A stretch of 64,000 bases of DNA, from contig CBDBMJ010000001.1 in assembly GCA_965207455.1 (NCBI GenBank), positions 544,001-608,000 of the forward strand, read 5' to 3'. Position 1 is the stretch's first letter, and every line of letters starts with the position of its first letter. Shown here one piece after another: positions 2 through 64,000 of the stretch. Under the pieces are notes generated by a model that saw only the letters and a list, made by a program, of their open reading frames with translations, searched no databases and was not told the DNA's origin. A program made the translations under genes and the position numbers. Origin of the DNA: Bdellovibrionota bacterium. GTDB lineage: Bacteria > Bdellovibrionota > UBA1018 > CAIPTA01 > JAALKR01.

Positions 2-1237
2 GTGGATTCCGAACTGGATGGTATAGGCAATCAAAATATAGAAATAATGGATGGGTCAGGTGATAGAATAGATGCCCCTATTATAAAATTAGTGAATTCT
101 ATTCTTATTAATTCTGTACAAAAAAAAGCATCTGATATTCATGTTGAGCCTTATCAAAATATTTTTCGTATACGTATGCGTGTAGATGGAACCTTGGTAG
201 AAACCATAAGACCACCGTATAAAACTCGTAATGCAGTTGTTGCACGTTTAAAAATCATGGCAAAAATGGATATTGCAGAAAAACGCTTACCTCAAGATGG
301 AAAAATCAAAATTCGTACAAAATATGGGGAGATGGATTTTCGTGTTTCTAGTATGCCTACTGTAAATGGAGAAAAAGTTGTATTACGACTTTTAGATAAA
401 TCTGGTTTAGAAACAGACCTCACCGCCCTTGGTTTTAGTGAAGAAGAGTATAAACTTTTTCATAGATCTATTTATGAAAGTAATGGAATGTTATTAGTAA
501 CGGGGCCTACAGGTTCAGGAAAAACCACTACCCTATATTCAGCCTTGGCGGAACGAAATAAACCCTCTGAAAACATATCTACAGCAGAAGATCCTGTGGA
601 GTATAATTTAGAGGGTATTAATCAATGTCAAACCCATGCTGATATTGGTTTAAATTTTGCAAAAACACTACGTACCTTTCTTCGTCAAGATCCAGATATT
701 ATTTTAGTGGGTGAGATTCGAGATCTTGAAACAGCAGAAGTAGCCATACAAGCAGCCTTAACAGGGCACTTAGTTTTTTCTACTCTACATACCAATGACG
801 CCCCATCTACGATCACTAGATTTTTAAATATGGGTATAGAACCTTTTTTAGTAACTGCCTCGGTACGAACGATTATTGCCCAGCGATTGCTTCGGTCTAT
901 TTGCTCGTCATGCAAGGAGGAGATATCTGTTCCTGTGGAACGTTTGATTGAACTGGGTATAGATAAAGAAGCTGCCAATACAGTAAAGATTTTTCAAGGC
1001 AAGGGCTGTAGTGAATGTGATAATAGTGGATATAAAGGTAGGTTTGCTGTTTTCGAAATCATGGATTTCACCACTAGACTCAAGGAAGCTGTTTTAAAAG
1101 GAGCCAATGCCATTGAGTTAAAAAAACTAGCTTTAGAGGGTGGAATGACTACTCTTCGAATGAATGCTTTAAAAAATACATTTCGAGGAAAGACAACATT
1201 GGAAGAAGCGATAGGAAATACATCCAATGACTTATAG
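2..1237 (+). CDS. pilB: Type IV pilus assembly ATPase PilB (5'-truncated by window edge)
   Basis: ASDIHVEP, RLPQDG, Walker A GPTGSGKT, EDPVEY, LRQDPD..GEIRD, TGHLVFSTLHTND, tetracysteine Zn motif; followed by pilT and pilC. Confidence 0.95.
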   Translation: MDSELDGIGNQNIEIMDGSGDRIDAPIIKLVNSILINSVQKKASDIHVEPYQNIFRIRMRVDGTLVETIRPPYKTRNAVVARLKIMAKMDIAEKRLPQDGKIKIRTKYGEMDFRVSSMPTVNGEKVVLRLLDKSGLETDLTALGFSEEEYKLFHRSIYESNGMLLVTGPTGSGKTTTLYSALAERNKPSENISTAEDPVEYNLEGINQCQTHADIGLNFAKTLRTFLRQDPDIILVGEIRDLETAEVAIQAALTGHLVFSTLHTNDAPSTITRFLNMGIEPFLVTASVRTIIAQRLLRSICSSCKEEISVPVERLIELGIDKEAANTVKIFQGKGCSECDNSGYKGRFAVFEIMDFTTRLKEAVLKGANAIELKKLALEGGMTTLRMNALKNTFRGKTTLEEAIGNTSNDL

Positions 1238-1251
1238 AGAAGGATGAATTT

Positions 1252-2337
1252 ATGCCAGCATTAAGTATTAAACAACTTCTTCAAGCAGTAATACAGCAAA
1301 AAGCATCTGACCTGCATATTACTATTGGTTCTCCACCTCTTCTGAGAGTACAGGGAAAAATGCTTCCCATAAAAACAGAATCTCTTAATAGTGACGATAC
1401 TAAATCTCTTTGTTATGAAATTATTACGGATAGGCAGAAAAAGGAATTGAGTGAAAATCTTTCCATCGATCTTTCTTTTGCTTTGGATAAAACCTCCCGG
1501 TTTCGTGGAAATATATACCTTCAACGAGGCAGTCTGGCAGCAGCTTTTCGTTATATTCCTGTGGAAATTCCTTCTATAGAATCTCTAAAACTTCCTAATA
1601 CATTAAAGAAAATGATGGAAGTTCCAAACGGCTTGCTTTTAGTTACCGGCCCCACAGGTTCAGGAAAAACCACTACTCTTGCCAGTCTCCTAGATTATAT
1701 TAATGAAACTAGGCAAGGGCATATTATAACCTTAGAAGATCCTATTGAGTTTATTCATTTGCATAAAAAATGTGTGGTCAACCAAAGAGAAATCGGACCC
1801 GATGCTCCGTCCTACTCCTCTGCCATGAGAGCATTGTTGCGCCAAGACCCAGATTATGTGCTTTTAGGAGAAATGCGAGATAGAGAATCGGTGCAAATGG
1901 CACTCACAATTGCAGAAACAGGCCATTTACTCTTTAGTACGCTCCATACAAATTCAGCAGTGCAAACAATTAATCGATTGATTAATATTTTCCCTGCTCA
2001 CGAGCAGAATCAAGTTCGTAATATGCTCAGTCTCACGCTTATTGGAATTGTTTCTCAGCAACTTATACATACAGAGAAAGGAAAACTTGCTTTGGCTATG
2101 GAGATAATGCGATGTACGCCGGCGATTCGGAATCTTATTCGAGAGCAAAAAATAGAGATGATTTACTCTTCCATGCAATCTAATCAAGAAAAAACTGGAA
2201 TGCAAACTATGAATCAAAGTTTATTGAGTCTTTATGAACAAGGTAAAATTTCTGATCAAACAGCCATTGAAAAATCCTCTGAGCAAGAGGAGCTTATACG
2301 AATGTTAAGTACTTCATCTAAAGTAGGGAACTTTTAA
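1252..2337 (+). CDS. pilT: Type IV pilus retraction ATPase PilT
   Basis: ASDLH, GPTGSGKT, EDPIEF, VNQRE, AIRNLIRE motif, GMQTM. Confidence 0.95.
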   Translation: MPALSIKQLLQAVIQQKASDLHITIGSPPLLRVQGKMLPIKTESLNSDDTKSLCYEIITDRQKKELSENLSIDLSFALDKTSRFRGNIYLQRGSLAAAFRYIPVEIPSIESLKLPNTLKKMMEVPNGLLLVTGPTGSGKTTTLASLLDYINETRQGHIITLEDPIEFIHLHKKCVVNQREIGPDAPSYSSAMRALLRQDPDYVLLGEMRDRESVQMALTIAETGHLLFSTLHTNSAVQTINRLINIFPAHEQNQVRNMLSLTLIGIVSQQLIHTEKGKLALAMEIMRCTPAIRNLIREQKIEMIYSSMQSNQEKTGMQTMNQSLLSLYEQGKISDQTAIEKSSEQEELIRMLSTSSKVGNF

Positions 2338-2343
2338 CTTATA

Positions 2344-3543
2344 ATGCCTGTTTTTAAATATGTAGGATTACAAAGAGATGGTACAAATGTTGATGGTGAG
2401 ATCGATTTACCTACGGAAAATGATGTGCGCAATCATTTGCGTCAGCAGGGTATTCGTTTAAAAAAACTATCAAAAGCTTCCATATTTAATGCTGATTTAT
2501 CTTTTGGATCTCCGGTAAAAGAAGTGGAGTTATCTATCATGACCCAACAACTTGCTATTATGCTAGAAGCAGGACTGCCCATTCTACAAGCATTGCAAAT
2601 TTTGGAATCTGGAGAACAAAATCCAGCATTAAAGAAAATTTTAAAGAAAGTTTCTGCATCCATTTCTGGTGGTGGTGCTTTGTGGGAAGCACTCTCTGTG
2701 CATAAAAAAGTTTTTCCTAACATATATATTTACCTTGTTCGTGCAGGTGAATTTAGCGGCTCCTTGGGAACCTCATTAAAACGATTAGCAACCTATCTGG
2801 AAAATAGCGTGGCACTTAAGCGCATGGTGAAGGGAGCTATGATATATCCAGCCGTCATTGCTATGGTGGGAATGGGAGTAACTTTTGGTTTATTGGCCTT
2901 TGTGGTTCCTCAATTTGAGTCAATGATTAAAAGTGGTGGCGGTGAACTTCCTGCTATTACAGCTTTTGTTATTGCTGCCAGTGATTTTGCAAGTTCACAG
3001 GCCCATATTATTATAGGAGGAGTAATAGCTGTAATTTTTATTTTTAAAAAAATAATCAGCACACCCAATGGACGTATGGCTTGGCATTTATTTTTATTGT
3101 CCGTTCCTGGCATTAAAACGCTTATCACGAAATCGTCCACAGCAGTATTTACTCGTACACTTGGCACTATGCTGCTTTCTGGAGTGAATCTAGTGGATGC
3201 CATAGAAATTTGCAAGGATGTAATAGACAATGAAGTAATGAAAAGATCTCTTACAAAAGTAAAAGCTGAAATTGTTGCAGGAAAAAGTATTGCTGGACCA
3301 TTGGCAAGAACGAAATTATTTCCCCATATGGTGGTGCAAATGGTTAGTGTTGGTGAAAATACTGGTGCCCTAGATAAAATGCTTATCCGTATTGCTGACT
3401 TTTATGAAGAAGAAGTAAAGGCGGTTGTTTCTGCCTTAACTAAGCTTATTGAGCCTTTGGTTCTTGTGGTTTTAGGTGGAGTTGTGGCTACTATTCTCAT
3501 TGCCATGTACTTACCCATATTCCAGTTGGCTGGTGGCGCATAA
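2344..3543 (+). CDS. pilC: Type IV pilus inner-membrane platform protein PilC (T2SS F family)
   Basis: Two T2SSF domains (AGE.SG.L; VGENTGALD..L), C-terminal EP...AMYLPIF. Confidence 0.95.
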   Translation: MPVFKYVGLQRDGTNVDGEIDLPTENDVRNHLRQQGIRLKKLSKASIFNADLSFGSPVKEVELSIMTQQLAIMLEAGLPILQALQILESGEQNPALKKILKKVSASISGGGALWEALSVHKKVFPNIYIYLVRAGEFSGSLGTSLKRLATYLENSVALKRMVKGAMIYPAVIAMVGMGVTFGLLAFVVPQFESMIKSGGGELPAITAFVIAASDFASSQAHIIIGGVIAVIFIFKKIISTPNGRMAWHLFLLSVPGIKTLITKSSTAVFTRTLGTMLLSGVNLVDAIEICKDVIDNEVMKRSLTKVKAEIVAGKSIAGPLARTKLFPHMVVQMVSVGENTGALDKMLIRIADFYEEEVKAVVSALTKLIEPLVLVVLGGVVATILIAMYLPIFQLAGGA

Positions 3544-45103: not shown

Positions 45104-45190
45104 TTAGTTGAAAAATAATTTGCATCAACTGAGGGTGTCATAAACGCAACTCTTAACTACACAATTTACTTTACAGGCCCACTATGTTCC

Positions 45191-45226: not shown

Positions 45227-45262
45227 CCTGTTCGAATATTGAGATTGCAATTACAGAATAGC

Positions 45263-52406: not shown

Positions 52407-55088
52407 ATGGGTTTGGGGATCACATTTAAGCAACAAAGCAAAGAGACTCAGTCGGGTTCTGCCATTTTAATGGTGATGGTCTTAGGTTTATTTATATCTA
52501 GCCTTTCCTACCTTTCCCTTCGAAAGTATCAGATTCATTTAGGGTCGCAAAAAACAGCGGAAGCTCGACAAACACTGCACATGATCCATACAGATATTCG
52601 AGGTGTATTGGGAGACACGCAATCTTGCACAGAGACAATAAAAAAAATTGCCATTTCAGAGGTAAGTAGCAAACTTCTTCCATTTATTAAAGGTTCTGGT
52701 GGGCAGATACTCTACCGGGTTAATAGGCCAGATAGCACTGGAACAACAATCACTGAACTGCAACTCTCCAAGCTTACTCCTATCCCGGGTACTACTAGCT
52801 CCATGGCAGAACTCTCTATCTTTTTTGAAAGGAAAAATAGCACTGGTCTTGAACTTCCTTCCTTTCGAGCCAGAGATATTAAAATTAAAATAGATCATCC
52901 ACCTCTTAATGTGACTCAACTTGCTCTCGGGAAATACCACACATGTGCGTTGTTTACTAATGGAAGGATGAAGTGCTGGGGCGGTGGTAGCGGAGGGAAT
53001 AATAAAGGACAATTAGGTTATGAAAATAAGGATACTATAGGTGATATTGTAGATGAGTTAGGGGGCAATCTTCCCTTTGTAGATTTAGGGTCCGGTATTA
53101 ATGGTCCTTATAAAGCAACAGCTATTTCTGCTGGTAATCAGCATACCTGTGCACTTTTAAATGTGGAAGGAACGGGAAGAGTAAAATGCTGGGGAAATAA
53201 TGCTGCTGGACAGTTGGGTTATGGCAATATATTTTCAAAGGGAGATCAAGAACATGATATGACAAATCTTCCTTTTATAGATTTGGGTGGTATTATTGAC
53301 GGTCATCATTTTTCAGTGCTGGCTATTGCTAGTGGGGATAGTCACAACTGTGCAATTATAGTGGATCCTCCTAGAGCGCCACCGGGACGAGCTTGGGAAG
53401 AAAGAAAAGTTAAGTGCTGGGGAGAGAATGAGCATGGGCAGCTTGGGCGAGGGAATACAGAGGATAGAGGCGATGAGGGTGGGGAGATGAGAAACGCTTT
53501 GGACTTCATACAATTAGGGCAAGGAGGAGGGCAACAGTTAGAGGTTGTTGCTATTAGTGCAGGAATAAGCCACAGCTGTGCTATTTTGAATACTACGCAA
53601 GGTAAGCAAATTAAGTGTTGGGGAAGTAATAGTGCTGGTCAATTAGGGGCAGGATCTACTGCTAGTAAAAGAGGAGCACTTGCAAATGAGATGGGTAGTT
53701 TTTTAAATTTTATTAATTTAGGAACGATTAGTGGTGGTACTGATCCTTTACATGTTTTGTCGATGAGTACAGGGGGAGAAACTAGCTGTGCTGTTTTAGA
53801 TATAAGTACCGGAAGTAGGTTAAAGTGCTGGGGATATAATTCAAAAGGACAGTTAGGTATTGGTAACAGTAATTCAAAGGGACAATCTCCCAACCATATG
53901 GGAAACTATATTTCCTCTAGTGTAGGGCTTCCCTTTGTGGATTTGGGTACAAATTTAGTGGCTAAATCCGTTTCTGTTGGTAATAAGCATACTTGTGTTA
54001 CTTTAACAAGTGGTAAAGTAAAATGTTGGGGAGAGGGTGGTGATGGTCGGCTTGGTTTGGGTAGTGGAGGTGTTTCTGATCCTATTGGCAATAGAGCTAA
54101 CGAAATGGGATATTATTTAAAATATTCTAAATTGGGAACTGATGCTAGTACTGGTGAACGCCATAGGGCTAGTGATGTTTTTGCTGGTTTTGTTCACACT
54201 TGTGCTGTAATGAGTGAAAAAGTAAAGTGTTGGGGTGAGGGAGGTGACAGAGCGCTTGGGTATGGCAATAACCAAAGTATTGCTCGTTTTAACGCTGGTG
54301 AAATGGGGAACAATCTTGGATTTGCTTTGATAGGGTCAGAAAAAATATGCACAGCAATTTTTGCCGAAGATGGAGAAAATTGGGAGTATAAGGATGGGTC
54401 CATTTTTTTGGGTGATGATAGCACAAAGCTGGGTATTGGTACGGATGAACCCGAGGAGATGCTTCATGTGAAGGGTACTATGAAAATAGAGGGAGATGCT
54501 TCTGCTGAAAATGTGTTCAGTTCTGGTTCGATACAATTAGATGAATTTACAGGATCGGATTGTACTGATACAGAAAAGGGGACTCAGCGATTTCGTGGAT
54601 ATGAAATGGAATATTGTGACGGAACTGATTGGAGGAATTTGGGTCAATCGCTTTGGGAGGAACATCCTAACCAAATAGCCACACCAGCTACTGGTACGCC
54701 TAGAAATGTGGGAATAGGAACGGATAATCCTCAAGCTAGATTACATGTTGCAGGAGAAAGTAAATTAGAAAACGGTGAATTTACAGTAGATGGCAATTCC
54801 GCTAGTCCTAGTAGCATTCCTAAGGCATTAGCTATTGGTGGTAATGTTGGAGTTGGGGGAGATGCTACAGGTGCGGAAAATACGGGTACAGATTATAGAT
54901 TAAAAATTGAGGATGGAAACTTTGTATCTACGGGTTTTACGAAAATGGATCATATGAAGTTGAAGGCTACAACTGCTCCTGAGTGCTCCCCTGCAAAGGG
55001 TTTAAACACTCTCTACTATAATATAGCTATTAATAGTCTCCAGTACTGTGATGGGAATATCTGGAGAAGTTTTAGGGTAGCTCCCTAG
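52407..55088 (+). CDS. Pilin-like (PilX-type leader) protein with internal RCC1 propeller and C-terminal fibre-like repeats (gene A)
   Basis: Leader QSG|SAILMVMVLG; seven RCC1 blades (HTC...KCWG..GQLG...EMG..L..IDLG); GIGTxxPxxxLHVxG x2; C...YCDG..W x2. Confidence 0.8.
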   Translation: MGLGITFKQQSKETQSGSAILMVMVLGLFISSLSYLSLRKYQIHLGSQKTAEARQTLHMIHTDIRGVLGDTQSCTETIKKIAISEVSSKLLPFIKGSGGQILYRVNRPDSTGTTITELQLSKLTPIPGTTSSMAELSIFFERKNSTGLELPSFRARDIKIKIDHPPLNVTQLALGKYHTCALFTNGRMKCWGGGSGGNNKGQLGYENKDTIGDIVDELGGNLPFVDLGSGINGPYKATAISAGNQHTCALLNVEGTGRVKCWGNNAAGQLGYGNIFSKGDQEHDMTNLPFIDLGGIIDGHHFSVLAIASGDSHNCAIIVDPPRAPPGRAWEERKVKCWGENEHGQLGRGNTEDRGDEGGEMRNALDFIQLGQGGGQQLEVVAISAGISHSCAILNTTQGKQIKCWGSNSAGQLGAGSTASKRGALANEMGSFLNFINLGTISGGTDPLHVLSMSTGGETSCAVLDISTGSRLKCWGYNSKGQLGIGNSNSKGQSPNHMGNYISSSVGLPFVDLGTNLVAKSVSVGNKHTCVTLTSGKVKCWGEGGDGRLGLGSGGVSDPIGNRANEMGYYLKYSKLGTDASTGERHRASDVFAGFVHTCAVMSEKVKCWGEGGDRALGYGNNQSIARFNAGEMGNNLGFALIGSEKICTAIFAEDGENWEYKDGSIFLGDDSTKLGIGTDEPEEMLHVKGTMKIEGDASAENVFSSGSIQLDEFTGSDCTDTEKGTQRFRGYEMEYCDGTDWRNLGQSLWEEHPNQIATPATGTPRNVGIGTDNPQARLHVAGESKLENGEFTVDGNSASPSSIPKALAIGGNVGVGGDATGAENTGTDYRLKIEDGNFVSTGFTKMDHMKLKATTAPECSPAKGLNTLYYNIAINSLQYCDGNIWRSFRVAP

Positions 55089-55253
55089 TCCATCCTATAA
55101 AAATCTATAAATAGTCTATAAATAGGGCTGAAACCTTATTATATTTGACTTGAGCAAAAAATGTTAATTTTTCTAAATATTTGTTTAGTTGACTAAAAAA
55201 CAATGTTATACTAAAGGTAGAGTATTTTTACAGAAAAGTAATGGGGGATTTTA

Positions 55254-58200
55254 ATGCTAACAAAGCCAATAAGTGGAAAGCGTCCTTTTAGTAATCAGTC
55301 TGGTGTAACCCTAGTGGGTGTGGTAGTAGCGGCTGGTTTGCTGGGAGTGCTTACCCTATTTTCCATGCAAGTCCAAATTAATTTAATCGGTAGTCAGGAA
55401 ACAACGGATAATCGGTATGCGTTTAATAATATTCAATCTAATATTCGTCAATTGTTAGGGAGTCCAAAAGCTTGTAGAGAAACGTTAGAAGGACAGATCA
55501 TTCCTAATCTACCGAATAATTATCTTTCTGTTTCTGACATAAGAGACGATACGGGATCAGCAACGTACAGTCAAGGTAGTTCTTATGAGGGTGGTAGGGT
55601 ATTGATTTCAAAAATGGATCTTTCTTCCTTTGTTCCCAGTGAAAGCGGTTCCCATGAAGGTACAGCAGAATTGCTGGTCTTTTTTCAATCCGCAACAAAT
55701 GTTCCTGGAACTATTGATGCAAAACCAAGAAGAATTGCTTTAAGTATTAAAACCAATCTTACTACTCGTTCTATTACTAAGTGTAGTGCCCTATTTTCAG
55801 AAAAAAATGACAACTCTTGGAGAGAGAATGTCCAGAAGGATCTGTATTTTGATGCTAGTTATGTGGGTATTGGTGTGGAGAATCCAGAAAATGAACTGGA
55901 TATATTGGGAGACGCTAAGTTTAAAGGTAGTTTGAATGTAATAGGCTTATATGATCTGAAAACAATAAAGGTTGGATTTTCGGGTGACTGTAATGCAGGG
56001 TCTCAGCGATATAATACGGGCACCGATACTATGGAGTTTTGCAATAGTGGTAGCTGGGAAGCGATGGGGAGCCTTTGGTCTCAAACGGATACTGGAAACT
56101 TTTATACTGATCCCGCAAAAAATGTTGGTATTGGAACAGAAACACCAGAAAAGAAATTTCATGTGGATGGTAATGCTAAGTTTGATGGTTATATGAGGAT
56201 GGATTCCAGTTCTGGATCAAGCCAGGCATTGGCAGTGCAGGGAAGAGTTATCATTGGACAAAATTTAGATAGCAGCTCTTCTATTGTAATTCCTCCAACG
56301 CTAGCTTCTGATGATACACAGTTCGGTGTGGATGGTGATGTGGAAATTGAAGGCACACTAGAAACGAGTACTATGCAAATAAGCCATGGCAGTCAAGCCT
56401 GTAATGGGGAGAGCATTGGAGTAACGAAGCGTTCTGGTTCAGGTCAGTTTAAATACTGTGATGGAAATAATTGGCAAGTTCTTTTGCCTGAGGATGTAAA
56501 CTTTGTGAAGGAAGAAGATGATGAAATTTTAGAGGTAGATAAAATAATGGTGGGTAAAAATCATACTTGCACTTACTTTACGAATAAAAAAGTAAAATGT
56601 TTTGGAAAAAATAATAAGGGTCAACTGGGTGATAATACGAATAATGATAGTGGTACTCCTGTTTATGTTGAAGATGATGGAGGTAACCATTTAGAAGATG
56701 TTGCTGCAATTTCAACCCATGGAGAGAGCGATTCCACCTGTGCTCGTATGGTTGATGGAACGGTGAGATGTTGGGGAGCAAATAATGAAGGCCAGTTAGG
56801 TAACGGGAGTTCTTCTGATTCGAATCATGCAGTAGCAGTTAATGATATTTCTACAGCTACTTTAATTTCTGTGGCTGCTAAACATGCTTGTGTGCGGTTG
56901 AGTGACGGTACTGCAAAATGTTGGGGAGCAAATGATGAAGGCCAGTTGGGTGATGGTACTAAATTCCAGAGAAATACGCCTGTTTTAGTTAAAGACTCTT
57001 CGGGTACAGATAATCGTGAAGATATTACAAGTATAGAAACAGGTAATGATAGGACTTGTATTAACTATGAGGTTGGTGGGGAGACTAGATCTGGATGTTG
57101 GGGCAAAGATGGAGATCAAACAGCACCTGGTAATACAGATGATTCACTTTTTTCAGGGCCAGTAGATATTGCTATAGCAGGAGATCATATTTGTATGCGA
57201 CCACAAAGTGGAACCGTTCAATGCTGGGGGCTGAATCAATTTGGGCAACTTGGTGATGGTCATACTAGTAGTGATGAGACATACAGATCAGAGCCAAAGC
57301 TTGTGATTGGTATAACGAGTGCAGTGAAAATTGCTGTACGCAATGGATCTAGCTGCGCTATCTTAAGAGATAAGTCTTTGTGGTGTTGGGGACAGATAAC
57401 AAATGATATATCATCAAACAAAGCAGTTAAGGTTGTGGGTTTTGAGAATGTTGTGGATGTTCGTCTTGGTTATTATCATAACTGTGTAACATTTGAAGAC
57501 GGAACAGGCAAGTGCTGGTCAAATGACCCCAGCAGTGTTACGAATCAAGAAGGTCTTGTTAGTAATCCAGATAATTCTATTTCTACCGAGAGTGAGACGC
57601 TTGAAATATTTGATCATGCTGAAACGGTTGGACAATTCAGGTTTAGACCTTGTGGAGGTGTAATTAGACATAAAAGTGAATCTACTGGTGTAGTAGGAGA
57701 TAGGCGATCTTGTGCAGTAGGTTCTGCTTTTCATAACGATATTGTAGACGGTGTTTGTGTTCAATCCTTAAATTGTTCTTTTGATGGTTCAGGGTATGGC
57801 CGTGAGAGAGTTTGTGAATCTGCACAAGGAACCTGTAAGTATACATGTAGTAATAGTACTTGGACAAGAAAGACAAACAATTGTGAAAAGCTAGTAACGC
57901 GAGTTCATTCACCAGACGGACCGCCACCAGTGTGGCCTATACAAATTGCCTCGGGATATTATCATACCTGCGTAGTTCTTAATGATGGCACAGCCAAATG
58001 CTGGGGGAGGAATAATAAAGGGCAATTGGGTAATGGTACTAAAGACAGTAGTTCAACACCAGTTAAAGTTTCTGATCTAACGAATGCGGTTCAAATTTCC
58101 GTGGGAGATAATCACAGTTGCGCAGTTCTTAGTGATGGCACAGCCAAGTGCTGGGGAAATAACGAAGATGGACAATTGGGTGATGGTCATACAACCAATA

Positions 58201-60080
58201 GATATACACCAGTTGCAGTTTCTGGTCTAACGAATGCGGTTCAAATTGCCTTGGGGGAAGAACACACCTGCGCAGTTCTTCGTGACGGCACAGCCAAATG
58301 CTGGGGAGCTAATAGTAGCGGGCAATTGGGTGATAATAGTTTAACCAGGAGAAATACAGCAGTTGCAGTTGATGGTATAACGAATGCGGTTCAAATTGCC
58401 TTGGGATATACTCACAGTTGCGCAGTTCTTAATGATGGCACAGCAAAGTGTTGGGGAAAGAATAATTTTGGGCAGTTGGGTGACGGTTTTACAACTAATA
58501 GACGTAAACCAGTTGAAGTTTTTGAGTTAACGAATGCCGCTCAGATTGCCTTAGGAGATTTTCACACCTGTGCGATTCTTACTGATGGTACAGCAAAATG
58601 CTGGGGGCGGAATAACTATGGGCAATTGGGTGATAGTACAGGAACCCAGAGAAATACCCCAGTTGCAGTTCTCGAGTTAACGAATGCGGTTCAAATTGCC
58701 TTGGGATCTTATCACACCTGCGCAGTTCTTCGTGACGGCACAGCCAAATGCTGGGGGTATAATAATAGAGGGCAATTGGGTAATGGTAGTACAACCCATA
58801 GATCTACACCAGGTACAGTTCCTGTGTTAACGAATGTGCTTCAAATTGCCTTGGGATCAGCGCACAGTTGCGCAGTTCTTCGTGACGGCACAGCCAAATG
58901 TTGGGGGTGGAATGCATATGGGCAATTGGGTAATGGTAGTACAACCCAGAGAACTACACCAGTCTTCGTTGATGGTTTTTCCACTCCCTACCTTTTTCCC
59001 ACGGAAATTGCTGGGGGAGAAACCCACAGTTGCGCACTTATGAATGATGGCACAGCCAAATGCTGGGGGTGGAATAACTATGGGCAATTGGGTAATGGTA
59101 CTAAAGACAGTAGTTCAACACCAGTTAAAGTTTCTGATCTAACGAATGCGATTCAAATTTCCTTGGGAGATAATCACAGTTGCGCAGTTCTTAGTGACGG
59201 CACAGCCAAATGCTGGGGGTATAATAATAAAGGGCAATTGGGTGATAATACTACAGCAGATAAATTAACACCAGTTAAAGTTTTAGGGTTAGCGAATGCG
59301 GTTCAAATTGCCTTGGGAGGGTATCACACCTGCGCACTTCTTCGTGACGGCAAAGCAAAGTGCTGGGGGAATAATAATAGAGGGCAATTGGGTGATGGTA
59401 CTACAACCCATAGATCTAAACCAGTTGCAGTTCTCGTGTTAACGAATGCGGTTCAAATTGCCTTGGGAGAAAACCACAGTTGCGCAGTTCTTCTTGACGG
59501 CACAGCAAAATGCTGGGGGTGGAATAAATATGGGCAATTGGGTAATGGTACAGGAACCCAGAGAAATACCCCAGTTGCAGTTCTCGAGTTAACGAATGCG
59601 ATTCAAATTTCCTTGGGAGGTTACCACAGTTGCGCACTTCTTCGTGACGGCACAGCCAAATGTTGGGGGCGGAATGGTAATGGGCAATTGGGTGCTAGCA
59701 CTACACAGACATGTGGCACTGCAAATATTCCTTGTAGCAGCACACCAGTTGCAGTTGATGGGTTAACGAATGCGGTTCAAATTGCCTTGGGATTTCACCA
59801 CAGTTGCGCAGTTCTTCGTGACGGCACAGCCAAATGTTGGGGGTGGAATGCATATGGGCAATTGGGTAATGGTAGTACAACCGATAGATATACACCAGTT
59901 GCAGTTTCTGGGTTAACGAATGCCGTTCAAATTTCCTTGGGAGATAATCACAGTTGCGCAGTTCTTAGTGATGGCACAGCCAAATGCTGGGGGAGGAATG
60001 CATCTGGGCGATTGGGTGATGGTCATACAACCGACAGATCTACACCAGTCTTCGTTGATGGTACATTATTAAATCCATAA
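55254..60080 (+). CDS. Giant pilin-like adhesin: class III leader, fibre-like repeats, three RCC1 propellers (gene B)
   Basis: Leader NQSG|VTLVGVVVAAG; VGIG..P repeats; C...FCN/YCDG..W; about 6-7 diverged blades, a Cys-rich linker, then 14 near-identical blades. Confidence 0.85.
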   Translation: MLTKPISGKRPFSNQSGVTLVGVVVAAGLLGVLTLFSMQVQINLIGSQETTDNRYAFNNIQSNIRQLLGSPKACRETLEGQIIPNLPNNYLSVSDIRDDTGSATYSQGSSYEGGRVLISKMDLSSFVPSESGSHEGTAELLVFFQSATNVPGTIDAKPRRIALSIKTNLTTRSITKCSALFSEKNDNSWRENVQKDLYFDASYVGIGVENPENELDILGDAKFKGSLNVIGLYDLKTIKVGFSGDCNAGSQRYNTGTDTMEFCNSGSWEAMGSLWSQTDTGNFYTDPAKNVGIGTETPEKKFHVDGNAKFDGYMRMDSSSGSSQALAVQGRVIIGQNLDSSSSIVIPPTLASDDTQFGVDGDVEIEGTLETSTMQISHGSQACNGESIGVTKRSGSGQFKYCDGNNWQVLLPEDVNFVKEEDDEILEVDKIMVGKNHTCTYFTNKKVKCFGKNNKGQLGDNTNNDSGTPVYVEDDGGNHLEDVAAISTHGESDSTCARMVDGTVRCWGANNEGQLGNGSSSDSNHAVAVNDISTATLISVAAKHACVRLSDGTAKCWGANDEGQLGDGTKFQRNTPVLVKDSSGTDNREDITSIETGNDRTCINYEVGGETRSGCWGKDGDQTAPGNTDDSLFSGPVDIAIAGDHICMRPQSGTVQCWGLNQFGQLGDGHTSSDETYRSEPKLVIGITSAVKIAVRNGSSCAILRDKSLWCWGQITNDISSNKAVKVVGFENVVDVRLGYYHNCVTFEDGTGKCWSNDPSSVTNQEGLVSNPDNSISTESETLEIFDHAETVGQFRFRPCGGVIRHKSESTGVVGDRRSCAVGSAFHNDIVDGVCVQSLNCSFDGSGYGRERVCESAQGTCKYTCSNSTWTRKTNNCEKLVTRVHSPDGPPPVWPIQIASGYYHTCVVLNDGTAKCWGRNNKGQLGNGTKDSSSTPVKVSDLTNAVQISVGDNHSCAVLSDGTAKCWGNNEDGQLGDGHTTNRYTPVAVSGLTNAVQIALGEEHTCAVLRDGTAKCWGANSSGQLGDNSLTRRNTAVAVDGITNAVQIALGYTHSCAVLNDGTAKCWGKNNFGQLGDGFTTNRRKPVEVFELTNAAQIALGDFHTCAILTDGTAKCWGRNNYGQLGDSTGTQRNTPVAVLELTNAVQIALGSYHTCAVLRDGTAKCWGYNNRGQLGNGSTTHRSTPGTVPVLTNVLQIALGSAHSCAVLRDGTAKCWGWNAYGQLGNGSTTQRTTPVFVDGFSTPYLFPTEIAGGETHSCALMNDGTAKCWGWNNYGQLGNGTKDSSSTPVKVSDLTNAIQISLGDNHSCAVLSDGTAKCWGYNNKGQLGDNTTADKLTPVKVLGLANAVQIALGGYHTCALLRDGKAKCWGNNNRGQLGDGTTTHRSKPVAVLVLTNAVQIALGENHSCAVLLDGTAKCWGWNKYGQLGNGTGTQRNTPVAVLELTNAIQISLGGYHSCALLRDGTAKCWGRNGNGQLGASTTQTCGTANIPCSSTPVAVDGLTNAVQIALGFHHSCAVLRDGTAKCWGWNAYGQLGNGSTTDRYTPVAVSGLTNAVQISLGDNHSCAVLSDGTAKCWGRNASGRLGDGHTTDRSTPVFVDGTLLNP
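57936..60062 (+). repeat. 14 tandem ~150-bp intragenic repeats (two 7-bladed RCC1 propellers)
   Basis: Unit QIxxGxxHxCAVLxDGTAKCWGxNxxGQLGxGxxxxRxTPVxVxxLTNA, near-identical at DNA level. Confidence 0.95.
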
Positions 60081-60092
60081 AGGAGAGTAAGC

Positions 60093-62591
60093 ATGGGAAG
60101 AAAGGTTGATAGAATGATGAAAAAAATAGTTCTTTTAAAAAAAATAATGGGCACGGAATCTGGTGTTTCTTTAGTGAGTGTAATGATAGCGGCAGGGATA
60201 TTGGGTATAGTTACACTTTTTTCTATTAAAGTTCAAGAAGGAATGATAGGAGGAGCAAAGTCTGTGGAGCGAAGGCATTCCGTAATGGGAGTATTTTCTA
60301 ATATTCGTTCCTTTCTTGCTAATGCTGAGGTTTGTAAGGAAAGCTTAGCTGGATTAAAGCCCGCAGAATCCGTTCCTGAAATAAAGGATGATAAAGGGAA
60401 TGTAGTATACCAAGAAAATAATTTTTATGAAGATGGAAATATTCAGCTTCAGTCCATGAATCTTTCAGCTTTAACAGAGAGCTTTAGTGGATCCAGCAGA
60501 GGGTTTCTTGATTTGAATGTAGTATTTTCTCAGGGAGAAAATAGGACTGGAAGACAATCCTTAGGATTTCTTCCCAGGAGGATTCGCCTTTATGTGGAAA
60601 TAGACCCTAACAATGATGGTGTTATTAAAAACTGTATTACTGTTGCGGGAAAAAATAGTGGAAACTGGCAATATGGATCCAATGAAAGTTTATACTATAT
60701 GGGTAATTCTGTGGGGGTTGGAACCAATAGTCCTGGATCGAAATTAGATGTTCAAGGAAATGCTAAAATAGAGGGACAAATGGGAGCTCACCATGTAGAG
60801 AGTAAGGGTGCTATACAAGTGGGTCAAACAGCAAGTACCTTAGCTTGTTCTGGAAACAATAGGGGAACCCAGCGCTATAGCGTTATTGGTGGTGAAATTG
60901 TTATGCAGTTTTGCAGTGAAAATCGTTGGAAAGCTATGAAAGAGATTTGGGAAGAAAACGGTTCATTTATATTCTCACCCACTGATAGTATTGTGGGTAT
61001 TGGAACCAATACCCCCAGTAGTACTGAAAGATTGGAAGTGAAAGGTGATAGTTGGTTTCAAGGTTTTATGGCTATGAGTGCTCCGTCCGGTTCCTCTAAA
61101 GCACTGGTGGTACGAGGAAATGTTCGTATTGATGACTCATCCTCTGATGCAGACACTGTTTTGCAAGATCCAAGCACATCAGTAAGGTTAGGTGTAAATG
61201 GAAATGTAAAAATAGAAAAATCCATTAAATCAGTATTGTGGCTGAAAGACGGTGGTGCGAATAGTATAACTTGTGATGCTACTAAAGTAGGGTCAGTGCG
61301 AAGTAACGTTAGTGAATTACAGTATTGTAATGGAACAGCTTGGAAAACCATACAAACAAAAAAATTGCCAACAGTGGATCAAATTGGGAGTGGTCTATAT
61401 CATTCTTGTGCAAAAATTAACGATGGAATTCAAACAACAGCTAAATGCTGGGGTTCTAATACCTGGGGACAATTAGGCATTGGAAAGTTTGGACAGAATA
61501 TTCCCGTACCCACTACAGTATTAGAAAGTGGTACACCTGAGAGTAACCCGATACCTTTTAAGCAAATTAAAGAGCTTTCTTTGGGTGATAGCCATACCTG
61601 TATAATAGCTGGAACTAATAGAAAAGCTTATTGCTGGGGAAATAATCATTCCTATAAATTAGGTATTGATGGTTTTGAACAGAGGGACGCTGATAATAAG
61701 CTCACATTTAAGATTCATCCTACTGAAATTGTTAAAACTATTGCTGATGATCCATTTACTGATATAGATAAGATATCCGCAGGTTTCTATCATACTTGCG
61801 CTGTTAAGAATCAAGCGGCTTGGTGTTGGGGTGGAAATTTTTATGGTCAAATTGGAAATGGAGAGTCTGGTAATGACAAATTTGTAAAACTTCCCACTAA
61901 GATTAATACTGATGGGTATGTGGTAGATGTGGCTGCCAGCGAATCTTTTACTTGCGCATTATTGGCGAATAAAAAAGCACAATGCTGGGGGGCTAATTGG
62001 TATGGTCAACTTGGTAATGACAATGATGAGTATAAAGGAAAAGGTAGTCCTGAACATATTTATGTAGAAGGAATTACTGATATAGCGCAAATTGCTGTAG
62101 GCTTGCGCCACGCCTGTGCTCGATTAGAGAATGGATCAATGTGGTGTTGGGGTGCTGGTTGGTCTGGGCAGCTAGGTAACGGTACTTTCGATTCCAGTTC
62201 TATTCCCGTTCAAGTAGAAACAAGTCCAGGGGTAGCGCTTCTTGGAGTTACTCATATTTCTGCTTCTCAATACCAAACTTGCGCTGTTTTAACTGGAGGT
62301 AAAGCTATGTGCTGGGGATTGAATAAAAAAGGAGAAGTGGGTAATGGATTAACTGAGAAAACCCATACTCCCGCTCTAGTATCTGATATTATAAATGTGG
62401 AAAAAGTTTCTGCAGGATATAACCATACCTGTGCGGTTTCCAACGAGCCTGTCAATGGTGGTAACCCTTTAGTTAAAGGAAGTACAGTTTCTTGCTGGGG
62501 TTCCAATTATAAGGGTCAACTGGGCGTTGGTCAGGATAGCTCAAGCCACAGTCTGCTTCCTAAAGCAACGCTTCTGTTGCTCCAAGACTAG
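60093..62591 (+). CDS. Pilin-like adhesin: class III leader, fibre-like repeats, one RCC1 propeller (gene C)
   Basis: RBS AAGGAG; leader ESG|VSLVSVMIAAG; VGVGT..P and VGIGT..P; C...FC/YCNG..W; seven RCC1 blades. Confidence 0.85.
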   Translation: MGRKVDRMMKKIVLLKKIMGTESGVSLVSVMIAAGILGIVTLFSIKVQEGMIGGAKSVERRHSVMGVFSNIRSFLANAEVCKESLAGLKPAESVPEIKDDKGNVVYQENNFYEDGNIQLQSMNLSALTESFSGSSRGFLDLNVVFSQGENRTGRQSLGFLPRRIRLYVEIDPNNDGVIKNCITVAGKNSGNWQYGSNESLYYMGNSVGVGTNSPGSKLDVQGNAKIEGQMGAHHVESKGAIQVGQTASTLACSGNNRGTQRYSVIGGEIVMQFCSENRWKAMKEIWEENGSFIFSPTDSIVGIGTNTPSSTERLEVKGDSWFQGFMAMSAPSGSSKALVVRGNVRIDDSSSDADTVLQDPSTSVRLGVNGNVKIEKSIKSVLWLKDGGANSITCDATKVGSVRSNVSELQYCNGTAWKTIQTKKLPTVDQIGSGLYHSCAKINDGIQTTAKCWGSNTWGQLGIGKFGQNIPVPTTVLESGTPESNPIPFKQIKELSLGDSHTCIIAGTNRKAYCWGNNHSYKLGIDGFEQRDADNKLTFKIHPTEIVKTIADDPFTDIDKISAGFYHTCAVKNQAAWCWGGNFYGQIGNGESGNDKFVKLPTKINTDGYVVDVAASESFTCALLANKKAQCWGANWYGQLGNDNDEYKGKGSPEHIYVEGITDIAQIAVGLRHACARLENGSMWCWGAGWSGQLGNGTFDSSSIPVQVETSPGVALLGVTHISASQYQTCAVLTGGKAMCWGLNKKGEVGNGLTEKTHTPALVSDIINVEKVSAGYNHTCAVSNEPVNGGNPLVKGSTVSCWGSNYKGQLGVGQDSSSHSLLPKATLLLLQD

Positions 62592-62622
62592 CTATAACTG
62601 TTTTGTGTGATGGAGGAGAATT

Positions 62623-64000
62623 ATGAGAAAAAAAGGCAAAACCACTTGGTTGAACTCTTCAGGTATGAGTTTAGTTGCTGTAATGATAGTTGTGACGTTT
62701 ATGAGTTCCTGTGGCAATGGAACATTTGAAGTTACAGCAGATTCCACAGGTGTGACGGGTACCACGAGAGACACAGCAAGTAAAATACTTTTGGGACGCG
62801 ATCATACTTGCGCACTTATTAGTGATGGCACTGTAAAATGTTGGGGAAATAATTTTTATGGGCAATTGGGTAACGATTCTACGGATGATAGCACCACCCC
62901 TGTTATAGTTTCTGGACTCTCTAACGTACGTCAAGTTATATTATATTGGGAACATACTTGCGCAATCATTAATGATGGTACTGTGAAGTGCTGGGGAAAG
63001 AATGAAAATAGTCAGTTGGGTGCTAGCACTACACAGACATGTGGCACTGCAAATATTCCTTGTAGCAGCACACCCGTTGAAGTTTCTGGCTTAAGTAATG
63101 TGAGTCAAATTGCTTCAGGAGCGTATCATTATTGTGCATTATTAACTACAGGCTCTGTAAAATGCTGGGGTTTAAATAGTTCTGGACAATTGGGCGACGG
63201 CAATGGTGGTAATACTGGAGATAAAAGTCCAACACCTGTTCTCGTTTCTGGGATTACCAATGCAAGTCGAATTGCCTTAGGACATTATTATAGTTGTGCA
63301 TTATTAACGACTGGCTCTGTGAAATGTTGGGGGCGAAATAGTTTTAGGCAGTTAGGCGACGGTACTTCTGAGCAAAGAACGGTGCCAGTTGCCGTTTCTG
63401 GGATTACCAATGCAAGTCAAATTAGAGCTGGGGAAGATTCCACCTGTGTTATTTTAAGTGACGCTTCTGTAAAATGCTGGGGAACTAGTTCTTATGGGAA
63501 GTTGGGTTATGGTAGTACAGATCATACCGCAATACCAGTTACAGTTTCCGGTATTGATAACGCAAGTCAAATTCTTATGTCCAATGTTCACGCTTGTGCA
63601 TTATTAACCACTGGTTCTGTGAAATGTTGGGGGAAGAATGAGTCCGGGCAATTGGGAAATGGCAGTGGTGGTAGCAGTGGAGATAAAAGTTTAGCACCAG
63701 TTGAGGTTTTTGGCATTACTAATGCAAGTCAAATTGATATTGGCTACTATCATTTTTGTGCATTATTATCGACTGGCTTTGTGAAGTGTTGGGGCTTGAA
63801 TAGTTCTGGGCAATTGGGCGACGGCAATGGTGGTAATACTGGAGACAAAAGCCTAGTACCGGTTACAGTTTCTGAACTCAGCAATGTAAGCCAACTTTCA
63901 TTAGGAGGTCATTATAGTTGTGTTGTTTTAAATGATGATACTGTGAAATGCTGGGGTCAGAATAGTGATGGGCAGTTAGGCGACGGTTCCACAGATGATC
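62623..64000 (+). CDS. RCC1-repeat surface protein, runs off the window end (gene D; absent from the ORF track)
   Basis: RBS GGAGGAG; MRKKGKTTWLNSSG|MSLVAVMIVVTFMSSCGNG...; at least 8 blades (H.CALL.TGSVKCWG.N..GQLG); no stop before 64000. Confidence 0.85.
   Translation, partial: MRKKGKTTWLNSSGMSLVAVMIVVTFMSSCGNGTFEVTADSTGVTGTTRDTASKILLGRDHTCALISDGTVKCWGNNFYGQLGNDSTDDSTTPVIVSGLSNVRQVILYWEHTCAIINDGTVKCWGKNENSQLGASTTQTCGTANIPCSSTPVEVSGLSNVSQIASGAYHYCALLTTGSVKCWGLNSSGQLGDGNGGNTGDKSPTPVLVSGITNASRIALGHYYSCALLTTGSVKCWGRNSFRQLGDGTSEQRTVPVAVSGITNASQIRAGEDSTCVILSDASVKCWGTSSYGKLGYGSTDHTAIPVTVSGIDNASQILMSNVHACALLTTGSVKCWGKNESGQLGNGSGGSSGDKSLAPVEVFGITNASQIDIGYYHFCALLSTGFVKCWGLNSSGQLGDGNGGNTGDKSLVPVTVSELSNVSQLSLGGHYSCVVLNDDTVKCWGQNSDGQLGDGSTDD

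Follow-up and report, generated by a model that had tools for sequence, protein, structure and literature searches.

Pilin-like modules joined to phage-like fibers and RCC1 propellers in a Bdellovibrionota bacterium

Gene layout of the locus

The window analyzed here is a whole stretch of 64,000 nt from a Bdellovibrionota bacterium (GCA_965207455.1, contig CBDBMJ010000001.1, positions 544,001 to 608,000 of the forward strand). Four genes, A to D, are found at its right end (Table 1). RCC1 families were the sole matches in all of them in a Pfam search at E ≤ 0.1, and counting by the C[WF]G motif gave 7, 21, 7, and 8 blades for A, B, C, and D, respectively, in agreement with the one to three propellers per protein attributed to A to C by a previous analysis made from the nucleotides only (the sequence-only reading). 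In addition, A, B, and C each carry a pilin-like N-terminal head and one fiber module, which is located after the propeller in A and ahead of it in B and C. The gap between B and C is only 12 bases, and D is probably cotranscribed with both. The 150-nt units that make up the array of B have 63 to 84% DNA identity to one another. By eye, the Cys-rich module of B recurs at the C terminus of its paralog B′ (see below) and is repeated in the relatives P0032 and P0033. The genes pilB, pilT, and pilC do lie in the same window, as had been pointed out, and the pil machine genes do not adjoin the array.

Table 1. Coordinates of the genes and modules within the window
Feature	Position	Strand	Description
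pilB, pilT, pilC	2..3543	+	
Gene A, 893 aa	52407..55088	+	Head 1-168, one 7-bladed RCC1 propeller ~167-642, C-terminal fiber module 655-893
A leader, alpha1N, and pilin-like head	52407..52910	+	Gly17, hydrophobic helix without Glu5
A fiber module	54369..55085	+	Two VGIGTxxPxxxL capping-loop units and two Cys modules
Gene B, 1608 aa	55254..60080	+	Head, fiber module, propeller 1, Cys-rich module, propellers 2 and 3, in this order
B leader, alpha1N (NQSG/VTLVGVVVAAGLLG), and head	55254..55820	+	
B fiber module	55815..56513	+	
B Cys-rich module, ~90 aa	57636..57899	+	Between propeller 1 and propellers 2-3 (by eye)
B array of 150-nt tandem units	57943..60078	+	14 RCC1 blades, propellers 2 and 3
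Gene C, 832 aa	60093..62591	+	Head 1-196, fiber module 190-425, one 7-bladed RCC1 propeller
C leader, alpha1N (TESG/VSLVSVMIAAGILG), and head	60093..60680	+	
C fiber module	60660..61367	+	
Gene D, 471 aa	62623..64000	+	8-bladed RCC1 protein, ends 38 bases beyond the window

The array continues past the edge of the window with a second trio, A′-B′-C′ (G000:C1:608802-617732), coding for proteins of 870, about 880 to 900, and 812 aa. Types A, B, and C occur once each in both trios, with 46 to 54% identity between copies. A search for similar arrays in related genomes, suggested by the sequence-only reading, gave a negative answer: the trio arrangement was not found in the 10 other genomes of the order or in two collection scans, and its conservation is thus that of two paralogous copies in one genome.

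Pilin identity of the N-terminal module

Four pilin-like starts had been proposed. This holds for A (TQSG/SAILMVM, the slash following the Gly), B (NQSG/VTLVGVV), and C (TESG/VSLVSVM), in which a short leader and a Gly precede ca. 20 hydrophobic residues. The start of D (NSSG/MSLVAVM) is followed, directly after the hydrophobic run, by a lipobox-like FMSSC, and the protein has neither head nor fiber; D is probably a lipoprotein and not a pilin. The residue at +5 is M in A, G in B, S in C, and A in D, confirming that Glu is missing at this position, and it is found in none of the six proteins A, B, C, A′, B′, and C′. In all six, an invariant Gly stands ahead of the hydrophobic run, at the alignment position where canonical relatives have the Gly of their cleavage site. 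In an alignment of A, B, C, the three paralogs, and one outside relative, S23, G24, I71, R72, and C81 are invariant. The IR..L....C.E stretch had, together with the head, rightly been described as common to A, B, and C by the sequence-only reading. The N terminus of A (QSG/SAILMVMVLG) resembles that of the probable GspK of the same genome (KSG/VALLLAL).

The proposed check with the N-methyl profile (PF07963, cut-off of 21.2 bits) went both ways. By hmmscan of the N-terminal pieces, all six proteins stayed below the cut-off (B′ 20.3, C′ 18.3, B 15.7, and C 12.3 bits, with no match for A and A′), while in the genome search B′ (23.4 bits) and C′ (21.4 bits) passed and B (18.6 bits) did not. The N-methyl matches of the genome were the pseudopilins of the type II secretion system (T2SS), one Tad-linked protein, the A-C/A′-C′ genes, and one further trio (C1:280936-286990), with no others. 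The cut-off was passed by 7 of the 22 scanned relatives of the head, with a best score of 32.7 bits.

The head itself (ca. 170 aa) is widespread. The A2 head profile detected relatives in 212 of the 401 genomes from this phylum; within one family (f22), 96 of 100 genomes gave matches. Among 1.84 billion sequences, it retrieved 1628 cluster representatives at E ≤ 1e-3 (317 at E ≤ 1e-10). The consensus of 123 aligned members, GFSLxEVxVAxGLxG...IRxxL....AC, has a canonical G/FSLxE N terminus, and the A-type head matches the profile of the B/C-type and outside heads (hhalign, probability of 99.2%, E of 9.6e-20, 151 columns). P0032, a B-type relative of 1535 aa with matching architecture and 38% identity over head and fiber, has a canonical G/MSLIE. 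Judged by these profiles, the head belongs to a large pilin family without a name.

The AlphaFold2 model of the head of C (pLDDT of 89.4, pTM of 0.78) has a 51-residue helix (6-56) that leads into an antiparallel sheet. A structure search with VIA gave Z ≥ 5 for three of 48,161 chains, all of them tip pseudopilins: XcpV (5bw0_B, Z of 6.2, rmsd of 3.0, 85/89 aligned), EpsI (2ret_A, Z of 5.6, 84/84 aligned), and GspK (3ci0_K, Z of 5.2), with an unrelated chain in fourth place (Z of 5.0); these are modest scores and, as the tool warns, a Z under 8 may merely mirror a common arrangement. Pilins made up 21 of the best 50 rows. Foldseek gave no match in the PDB at E ≤ 0.001 for the head or the other model, and its best rows for the head were NTF2-like folds (E of 0.011). 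Altogether, the homology to the G/FSLxE family and a modeled fold nearest to tip pseudopilins support a genuine type IV pilin-like module in A, B, and C.

Fiber module

The fiber module, one per protein and about 235 aa long, is co-linear in the six proteins, with 28 invariant columns. It contains the elements that had been listed for A to C, i.e., two VGIGTxxPxxxL repeats and two Cys modules, C..G.QRY..M.FC.G..W and C..G....YC.G..W. The assignment of these repeats to trimeric fibers was borne out, as the motif equals the capping-loop consensus of trimeric MAT/S74 fibers, V-G-G/N-pi-x-x-P-x-x-x-L (PMC10769870), and a profile of the six modules matched the Bd2133 fiber (8ond, E of 1.6e-6), MyRF (7dc3, E of 0.0076), and three more MAT fibers (E of 0.018 to 0.038). 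From these matches, the fiber loops of A to C are homologous to the solved Bdellovibrio MAT fibers. Modeled as a single chain, the fiber part had low confidence (pLDDT mostly 41 to 65). An S74 trimerization chaperone was found at the C terminus of relatives with the A-C-type head (6 of 22 scanned, or 38 of 149 by motif). The suggested link of the Cys modules to shufflon PilV adhesins found no backing, with no PF04917 match in A to C and no tblastn match in 72,556 plasmids.

Possible function and alternatives

The type IVa pilus machine encoded in the genome is complete and includes PilA, PilQ, and PilM, and the prepilin peptidase PilD is present in two copies. Somewhat more likely than not, A, B, C, A′, B′, and C′ serve as modular minor pilins, capping a type IVa pilus with trimeric fiber and propeller adhesins. 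The earlier proposal of pilus-tip adhesins is thereby supported in part, by the pilin-like module, the pilus machine, and the precedent of PilX2 (see below) for a tip-adhesin role.

We infer that A to C would be cleaved, trimerize, reach the tip, and bind ligands there. The alpha1N helix would place them in the inner membrane, and the prepilin peptidase would cut after the invariant Gly of the class III-type leader. In the periplasm, three fiber chains would join, so that the three attached pilin modules form a preassembled cap. Glu5 is described as bridging to the subunit above, with a Glu5-less pilin capping tip complexes (PMC10191384), and docking through Glu5 would not be needed in a cap already joined by its fibers. 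The cap would prime polymerization of PilA, the major pilin, on the PilB/PilC machine and, with up to five propellers, be pushed out through the secretin PilQ. At the tip, the propellers may bind substrates or surface molecules of other bacteria (prey), and retraction by PilT would then draw the cell onto its target. If they do act at the pilus tip, the two trios would supply two alternative caps; given such a location, one mixed A.B.C trimer per cap, the heterotrimer suggested by the sequence-only reading, has a little under an even chance, and separate homotrimers are only slightly less likely.

The version in which A3, B3, C3, A′3, B′3, and C′3 homotrimers provide six alternative tip caps, the trio order being a trace of block duplication, is on the whole unlikely. 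All solved fibers with the A-C-type capping-loop motif are homotrimers (PMC10769870), as is the tip pilin CofB (PMC10191384), and relatives combining the A-C-type head with the S74 chaperone stand as single genes, e.g., those of 794 and 706 aa in L039 and L040, without any head-bearing neighbor, and must therefore self-trimerize. The fiber modules of A, B, and C differ by indels and are only 27 to 34% identical, and that of A is on the opposite side of the propeller. Against this, exactly one A, B, and C type has been kept in both trios, B and C are almost contiguous, the N terminus of the A type stands apart as GspK-like, and the tip sets GspI-J-K, PilA-B-C of S. sanguinis, and KilL-M-N are mixed trimers (PMC8179133, PMC12075869).

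It is less probable still, and would be rather surprising, that the N termini are not processed as pilins but act as uncleaved membrane anchors or export signals of MAT adhesin-like surface fibers independent of pili. The predator uses an N-terminal domain of a non-pilin type to display MAT fibers with a matching loop motif on its surface (PMC10769870), the six proteins lack Glu5, and A and A′ lack any PF07963 signal. Among the other RCC1 proteins of the genome, most appear to carry a lipoprotein signal (judged by eye, at least 14 of 29 ORFs), which would make pilus-free surface display of propellers a local habit. However, an inner-membrane helix alone cannot set a fiber beyond the outer membrane, the invariant Gly coincides with the cleavage site of canonical relatives, and both the homology and the modeled fold of the head are those of a pilin.

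Very improbable is a role as minor subunits of a T2SS pseudopilus or a Tad pilus instead of the type IVa pilus: T2SS pseudopilins are the best structural neighbors of the head and the genome holds a full T2SS cluster (C1:703-716k) and a Tad locus (C3), but the former comes with GspG, H, I, J, and a probable GspK of its own, long fibers with adhesin heads would be useless to a periplasmic pseudopilus, and the head family has G/FSLxE N termini, which we take not to be of the Flp/TadE type.

Comparison with known systems

The statement that no system with this combination had been described was too strong. Modular pilins, MAT fibers, the RCC1-propeller pilin PilX2, and paralogous Kil trios are all known parts, and pilins with RCC1 or S74 are listed in Dataset S1 of Raynaud et al. 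2021, PNAS (PMC8179133): 29 proteins combine IPR012902 with S74, another 4 do so together with a further domain, and IPR012902 with RCC1 repeats occurs in six architectures of one protein each. None of these listed pilins was studied. Modular pilins such as PilB and PilC of Streptococcus sanguinis combine, like A to C, a pilin module with extra functional modules, and a tip location is expected for them (PMC8179133). In contrast to the catalogued ones, A to C add a trimerizing fiber module, between head and propellers or after both, and reach 1608 aa with three propellers and without Glu5. As they are mostly under the IPR012902/PF07963 threshold, a survey of that type would miss them.

PilX2 of the saccharibacterium TM7x (bioRxiv 2024, PMC11623550) has been described as a minor pilin in which an RCC1 propeller of seven blades is combined with a non-canonical signal, both as in A to C. 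Its deletion reduces binding to the bacterial host, for which it is proposed as a type IV pilus adhesin in bacterium-bacterium interaction. As described there, and unlike A to C, it comes from a lone gene and has just one propeller and no fiber module.

The MAT fibers of Bdellovibrio bacteriovorus (PDB 8ond, 8oml, 8ojn, and 8ol4) share with A to C the VG[GN]xxxPxxxL capping loop, profile-level similarity, and variable binding domains on a phage-like fiber, and the host of A to C is a relative of predatory bacteria. However, MATs have a signal peptide and a conserved beta-rich N-domain of ca. 130 aa in place of the pilin module, their described tips are TNF-like, C-type lectin, novel beta-sandwich, or S74 instead of RCC1 (Caulton et al. 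2024, PMC10769870), and the fiber module of A to C is short in comparison.

Like GspK-GspI-GspJ (3ci0) and KilL-M-N, the putative minor pilins A to C are encoded by three neighboring genes and include a capping candidate without Glu5, and paralogous trios in one genome are also found for Kil, the four kilLMN sets of Myxococcus being proposed to give interchangeable predation tips (PMC12075869). Those trimers are held by the pilin modules, whereas A to C each carry a matched fiber chain, and Glu5 is missing in one member of those sets but in all three here. In structure, the head comes closest to proteins of the GspI and GspK types. Unlike GspK, A has no alpha-domain (no PF03934 or PF21687 match). 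CofB and TcpB (type IVb) are large minor pilins at the pilus tip that trimerize through C-terminal domains (PMC10191384), similar to what is proposed here for A to C. As described, they are single genes forming homotrimers, with unlike C-terminal folds, and CofB aligned weakly with the head model (Z of 3.2). What appears new in A to C is the mix of a pilus-subunit anchor, a phage-like fiber, and propeller binding domains.

Gene layout of the two trios

The giant genes A, B and C, each coding for a pilin-like head, a fiber module and RCC1 propellers, are followed by D, an RCC1-only propeller gene, with intergenic gaps of 165 (A-B), 12 (B-C) and 31 bases (C-D). The window corresponds to positions 544001-608000 of contig C1 in the source genome, G000 (2.38 Mb, 3 contigs, 40% GC). 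The features listed by the sequence-only reading, i.e., the leader, the IR..L....C.E helix, the head, the fiber repeats, the Cys modules and the propellers, were all present in the translations. The propeller precedes the fiber in A and follows it in B and C, and the C[WF]G motif indicates 7, 21, 7 and 8 RCC1 blades in A, B, C and D, respectively. At E <= 0.1, Pfam found only RCC1 families in all four, and NCBIfam had no family for A, B or C. With RCC1 families at E values of 2e-48 to 7e-212 (Pfam) beside the head, the proteins classify as modular type IV pilins in the sense of Raynaud et al. (2021).

A paralogous trio of the same architecture (A', B' and C') is found just past the window end. 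The two copies share 54% (A/A'), 46% (B/B', over the shared part only) and 53% (C/C') identity, and B is equivalent to B' plus two more propellers. Three different putative minor-pilin genes are adjacent, with a paralogous trio in the same genome. An ORF resembling helix-turn-helix proteins breaks up the second trio, and an HTH_3 protein is encoded in the window as well. Promoter and terminator scans gave counts that were not above those of shuffled sequence.

Coordinates of the trios and of other features in G000 and one other genome (window positions, or genome:contig:positions; L, extracted loci)
Feature	Location	Strand or orientation	Product or content
A	window 52407-55088	+, co-oriented with B-D	893 aa
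B	window 55254-60080	+, co-oriented with A, C and D	1608 aa
Cys-rich module of B	window 57636-57899		ca. 90 aa, B residues about 795-882
Blade array of B	window 57943-60078		14 RCC1 blades
C	window 60093-62591	+, co-oriented with A, B and D	832 aa
D	window 62623 onward, open at window end	co-oriented with A-C	471 aa in full
A', 157-aa ORF, B', C'	G000:C1:608802-617732 (L009:2802-11732), past the window		870 aa; 157 aa; about 880-900 aa, start-dependent; 812 aa
157-aa ORF between A' and B'	L009:5886-6359		helix-turn-helix-like
RCC1 lipoprotein	after the second trio	opposite strand	775 aa
Third set	G000:C1:280936-286990 (L059)		1456-aa RCC1 protein, then two canonical pilin genes
Prepilin peptidase, copy 1	G000:C1:1819492-1820283		Peptidase_A24 at C1:1819807
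Prepilin peptidase, copy 2	G000:C1:1823645-1824436		Peptidase_A24 at C1:1823960
Head-only paralogue	G000:C1:1334427-1334996	-	189 aa
Longer head paralogue	G000:C3:325964-327283	+	439 aa
Three tandem head genes	G273:C4:76343-80627 (L038)		471, 476 and 479 aa
RCC1 ORF with Big_13 domain	window 19977-21755
HTH_3 protein	window 26759-27211		150 aa
Low-GC region	window 39205-48700		32-36% GC at 40-48 kb

The N-terminal domain is a pilin module

In all six proteins, a short charged leader closes with Gly and leads into ca. 20 hydrophobic residues, and the alignment shows the Ser-Gly ahead of these residues to be invariant (below, a slash follows the last leader residue). Against the N_methyl family PF07963 (cut-off, 21.2 bits), a genome-wide search placed B' (23.4 bits) and C' (21.4 bits) above the cut-off and B (18.6) and C (15.2) below it; hmmscan of the N-terminal pieces gave 20.3 for B', 18.3 for C', 15.7 for B and 12.3 for C, with no hit for A or A'. 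By eye, the N-termini of these last two lack Glu5 and follow the G-[VA]-A-L-L pattern (QSG/SAILMVM in A and QSG/AALLIVM in A'), comparable to that of the probable GspK of G000 (KSG/VALLLAL; T2SSK_1st at 25.6 bits versus a cut-off of 26.2). No T2SSK family, indicative of the GspK alpha-domain, was found in the head pieces of A and A' (E <= 10) or in whole A (E <= 0.1).

Further evidence comes from the relatives of the head, the N-terminal domain of ca. 170 aa. When residues 1-430 of C were searched against 5.8 billion proteins, C' was the sole close relative, and the remaining 23 matches were remote (E 2e-12 to 6e-4) and aligned mostly over the fiber loops. One of these, P0007, combines a canonical G/MTLVE N-terminus and the same IR..L....C head with GIGT repeats and an S74 chaperone; it also gave, only as a lead (score 0.84), a cluster of 87 proteins, 100% of which have S74 and 83% N_methyl. 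A profile of the six heads matched 212 of the 401 genomes sampled from the phylum and 96 of the 100 in family f22, often several times in the same genome, with ORF lengths of 170-800 aa and a best E value outside G000 of 2e-26. Among 1.84 billion cluster representatives, it retrieved 1628 at E <= 1e-3, 317 at E <= 1e-10 and 5 at E <= 1e-30. The 22 head-family ORFs that we extracted have typical prepilin leaders of the G/FSLxE type (e.g., MKQNKG/FSLVEIMIAA); among the relatives scanned, 7/22 passed the PF07963 cut-off and 6/22 ended in an S74 chaperone. The consensus N-terminus of 123 aligned members is GFSLxEVxVAxGLxG. Even the most divergent head, the A type, matched the profile of B/C-type and outside heads with an hhalign probability of 99.2%. 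The N-terminal domain of A-C is therefore homologous to proteins with canonical prepilin N-termini, i.e., it is a pilin module, as the sequence-only reading had it.

The predicted structure agrees. In an AF2 model of C 1-432, the head was confident (pLDDT 82-97) and the fiber poorly defined; modeled alone from a 123-row alignment, the head reached a pLDDT of 89.4 and a pTM of 0.78, with a 51-residue helix (6-56) followed by an antiparallel sheet (strands at 77-164). The pilin fold expected at the outset, a long N-terminal helix on an antiparallel sheet, is thus what the model (pLDDT 89.4) predicts. In an exhaustive comparison with 48,161 chains (VIA-align), Z >= 5 was reached only by XcpV, EpsI and GspK (Z 6.2-5.2), all of them members of the T2SS tip complex, and pilins or pseudopilins took 21 of the best 50 rows with the head model and 20 of the best 50 with the larger one. 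Since these Z values are modest and an unrelated chain comes next at 5.0, the sequence homology carries the weight and the fold serves as agreement. Foldseek found nothing in the PDB at E <= 0.001 with either the head or the 432-residue model; its top rows were the Bd2133 fiber for the latter (E 3.4e-3) and NTF2-like folds for the head (E 0.011 upward). Nor did phmmer, run with C 1-436, match any PDB sequence at E <= 10.

Two further head paralogues are present in G000. The shorter is a head-only pilin with the N-terminus SQSG/MSLLSVIMAAGLLG and Ser at +5. Three tandem head-bearing genes of matched length in another genome (L038) have a different stalk, with a GDTMTG motif and Cys-rich NxDG repeats, and E, K and E at +5. 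Several other genomes also have head genes arranged in tandem pairs.

Loss of Glu5

As claimed from the sequence, none of the proteins has Glu at +5 of the mature protein (0/6 over the two trios together; M, G, S, I, S and S occupy this position). In the wider head family, 75 of 149 representatives have Glu5, and 48 have S, G or Q instead; its loss is counted for 74 of the 149, and a further 11 could not be scored. The relative P0032 (1535 aa) is 38% identical to B over head and fiber and has the same domain order (head, fiber, propeller, Cys-rich modules, propeller). It has a canonical G/MSLIE, so that Glu5 is labile within the subfamily. Type IV filaments are built starting at the tip and proceeding toward the base, and Glu5 of one subunit binds the N-terminal amine of the next one up; the pilin that caps a tip complex lacks Glu5, and CofB is a trimer at the tip (Pelicic 2023, PMC10191384). 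If three pilin modules were bound together by a trimeric fiber, docking through Glu5 would be unneeded, which would fit its loss in all six proteins.

A fiber module of the MAT/S74 type

The fiber module (ca. 235 residues) consists of two VGIGTxxPxxxL units, found in each of the six proteins, and two Cys modules. It spans residues 655-893 of A, 188-420 of B and 190-425 of C. The modules are arranged co-linearly in these three proteins, and 28 alignment columns are invariant. When a profile built from all six modules was compared with PDB sequences, the GIGT units gave five matches, namely the Bd2133 fiber (8ond, E 1.6e-6), MyRF (7dc3, E 0.0076) and three further mosaic adhesive trimer (MAT) fibers of Bdellovibrio (8ojn, 8oml and 8ol4, E 0.018-0.038). 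The MyRF match was also remarked on by Caulton et al. (2024, PMC10769870), who described V-G-G/N-pi-x-x-P-x-x-x-L as the capping loop of the trimeric beta-helical MAT and S74 fibers. The GIGTxxP repeats, originally noted as tail-fiber-like, can accordingly be identified with this capping-loop motif, and the modules are predicted to form trimers. Complex prediction of the three fiber modules, with A as a partner, scored 0.46 versus 0.42 for a control with chain 2 replaced, a result that counts neither for nor against a complex. Among the best 149 family representatives, motifs indicated GIGT units in 78, an S74 signature in 38 and RCC1 in only 4, all of the latter being G000 proteins or near relatives. 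The RCC1 heads are thus lineage specific and the pilin-plus-fiber design is widespread.

Propellers and the RCC1 expansion

The tandem array of blades in B has a period of 150 nt and 63-84% DNA identity. P0029, a near-identical variant of B from elsewhere, has 1245 aa and is ca. seven blades shorter, and on this sequence comparison the number of blades seems to differ between strains. The Cys-rich module located before the array, also found at the C terminus of B', has no Pfam match; by eye, it recurs several times in P0032 and many times in P0033, another outside relative.

D had been counted as a fourth pilin-like member. Its first 25 residues do resemble the alpha1N of B and C (SSG/MSLVAVMIVV), followed by a lipobox-like FMSSC that groups it with the lipoprotein-signal RCC1 proteins of G000, and we do not retain it among the pilins. 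D and B have in common an identical stretch of ca. 19 residues (ASTTQTCGTANIPCSSTPV), which suggests recombination between propeller genes. RCC1-like proteins are greatly expanded in the 2.4-Mb genome: 54 domain matches fall within 29 ORFs, and inspection by eye indicates lipoprotein signals in at least 14 of these. One RCC1 ORF of the window also bears a Big_13 domain.

Pilus machinery and genomic context

G000 encodes PilB, PilT, PilC, PilQ and PilM, together with a PilA of 194 aa (N-terminus G/FTLIELMIVVAIIG). The prepilin peptidase gene is found twice, ca. 4 kb apart and adjoining the major pilin gene; the two copies have identical N-terminal sequences, the gene having been either duplicated recently or repeated in the assembly. 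The T2SS cluster has its own G, H, I and J pseudopilins in addition to the probable GspK, and a Tad locus is also present. The PF07963 search of G000 revealed no separate four-gene minor-pilin operon. Candidate primers of the type IVa pilus are the two trios plus a third set. In the latter, the RCC1 protein has an N-terminus (..EKG/LILILMSIL) that is GspK/PilX-like by eye, and the two pilins (195 and 355 aa) score 26.4 and 22.3 bits with PF07963. A C-5 DNA methylase and a SocA/Panacea antitoxin-like gene are found in the low-GC region of the window, together with several unannotated ORFs and an S8 peptidase beside an AAA ATPase; the region may be a mobile or defense island.

Distribution, novelty and a possible tip complex

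The search for conserved arrays in related genomes, proposed with the sequence-only reading, found no trio outside G000 among 11 genomes of the order (G000 included). A search for B-type head-plus-fiber loci gave 57 pattern matches in genome contigs and 214 in metagenome contigs, none of them confirmed. Our literature search found no description of a pilin-fiber-RCC1 protein or of such trios. To say that no system with this combination has been described is too strong, however, in view of the pairwise fusions: as far as its available part shows, Dataset S1 of Raynaud et al. (2021, PMC8179133) lists pilin plus S74 in 29 proteins (and in 4 that have one more domain), as well as pilin plus RCC1 in six architectures of one protein each, entered there without further study.

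A tentative reading, to which we give the smaller share of our belief, is that A, B and C make up one machine. Three Glu5-less pilins, one copy each, would be joined by a heterotrimeric phage-like fiber into a pre-assembled cap that shows five RCC1 propellers and, in this lineage, takes the place of the canonical PilHIJK/PilY1 priming complex of the type IVa pilus. The two caps and the third RCC1 trio would then be interchangeable prey-recognition tips, with changes in the blade number of B tuning specificity between strains. If true, the heterotrimeric S74/MAT-type fiber would be unprecedented.

How predatory and episymbiotic bacteria recognize other bacteria is largely an open question. The locus and its wider family represent a direct gene fusion of a pilus subunit to a MAT-like fiber, and provide a concrete and testable route by which phage-like receptor-binding fibers could be placed on a retractable filament. 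The pilin head with a GIGT fiber, with or without the S74 chaperone, is found in roughly one of every two genomes sampled from the phylum. The frequent loss of Glu5 and the tandem trios are also relevant to the priming of pilus assembly by tip complexes. In practical terms the locus is of modest value, the organism being apparently uncultured and the single parts already known.

Comparison with known systems

One parallel is provided by the MATs, whose shaft is like that of A-C. According to the available text of Caulton et al. (2024, PMC10769870), all 21 MATs have a signal peptide and a conserved beta-rich N-domain (ca. 130 aa) with no PDB homologue, their surface anchor is unknown, and a possible interplay with type IV pili is mentioned. 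The head of A-C, in contrast, resembles pseudopilins. This difference, together with the capping-loop match, leads us to describe A-C as a MAT-like shaft anchored by a pilin module. It is unlikely that the head family is itself the MAT N-domain: in a weak test on G128, one 3.8-Mb genome of f22, the head profile had just three matches at E <= 1e-5, all in short ORFs (248, 321 and 424 aa) and none of them fiber sized. We found no text on the N-domain or the signal peptides in the accessible part of Supplement 1 of the same article. The kinship with shufflon PilV adhesins, suggested by the Cys modules, found no support: PF04917 is absent from A-D (E <= 0.1), in P0007 its match falls on the GIGT part of the fiber and not on the Cys module, and tblastn of the C fiber module found no match among 72,556 plasmids (E <= 1e-3) or among phages, which removes this lead at that sensitivity.

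Two systems serve as precedents by analogy. The minor pilin PilX2 of TM7x, described in the available text as carrying a seven-bladed RCC1 propeller and lacking a predicted PilD signal, is needed for efficient host binding (PMC11623550), and is a functional precedent for the propellers of A-C. In Myxococcus, four kilLMN sets form interchangeable heterotrimeric tips that are required for predation (PMC12075869), a precedent for paralogous trios such as A-B-C and A'-B'-C'.
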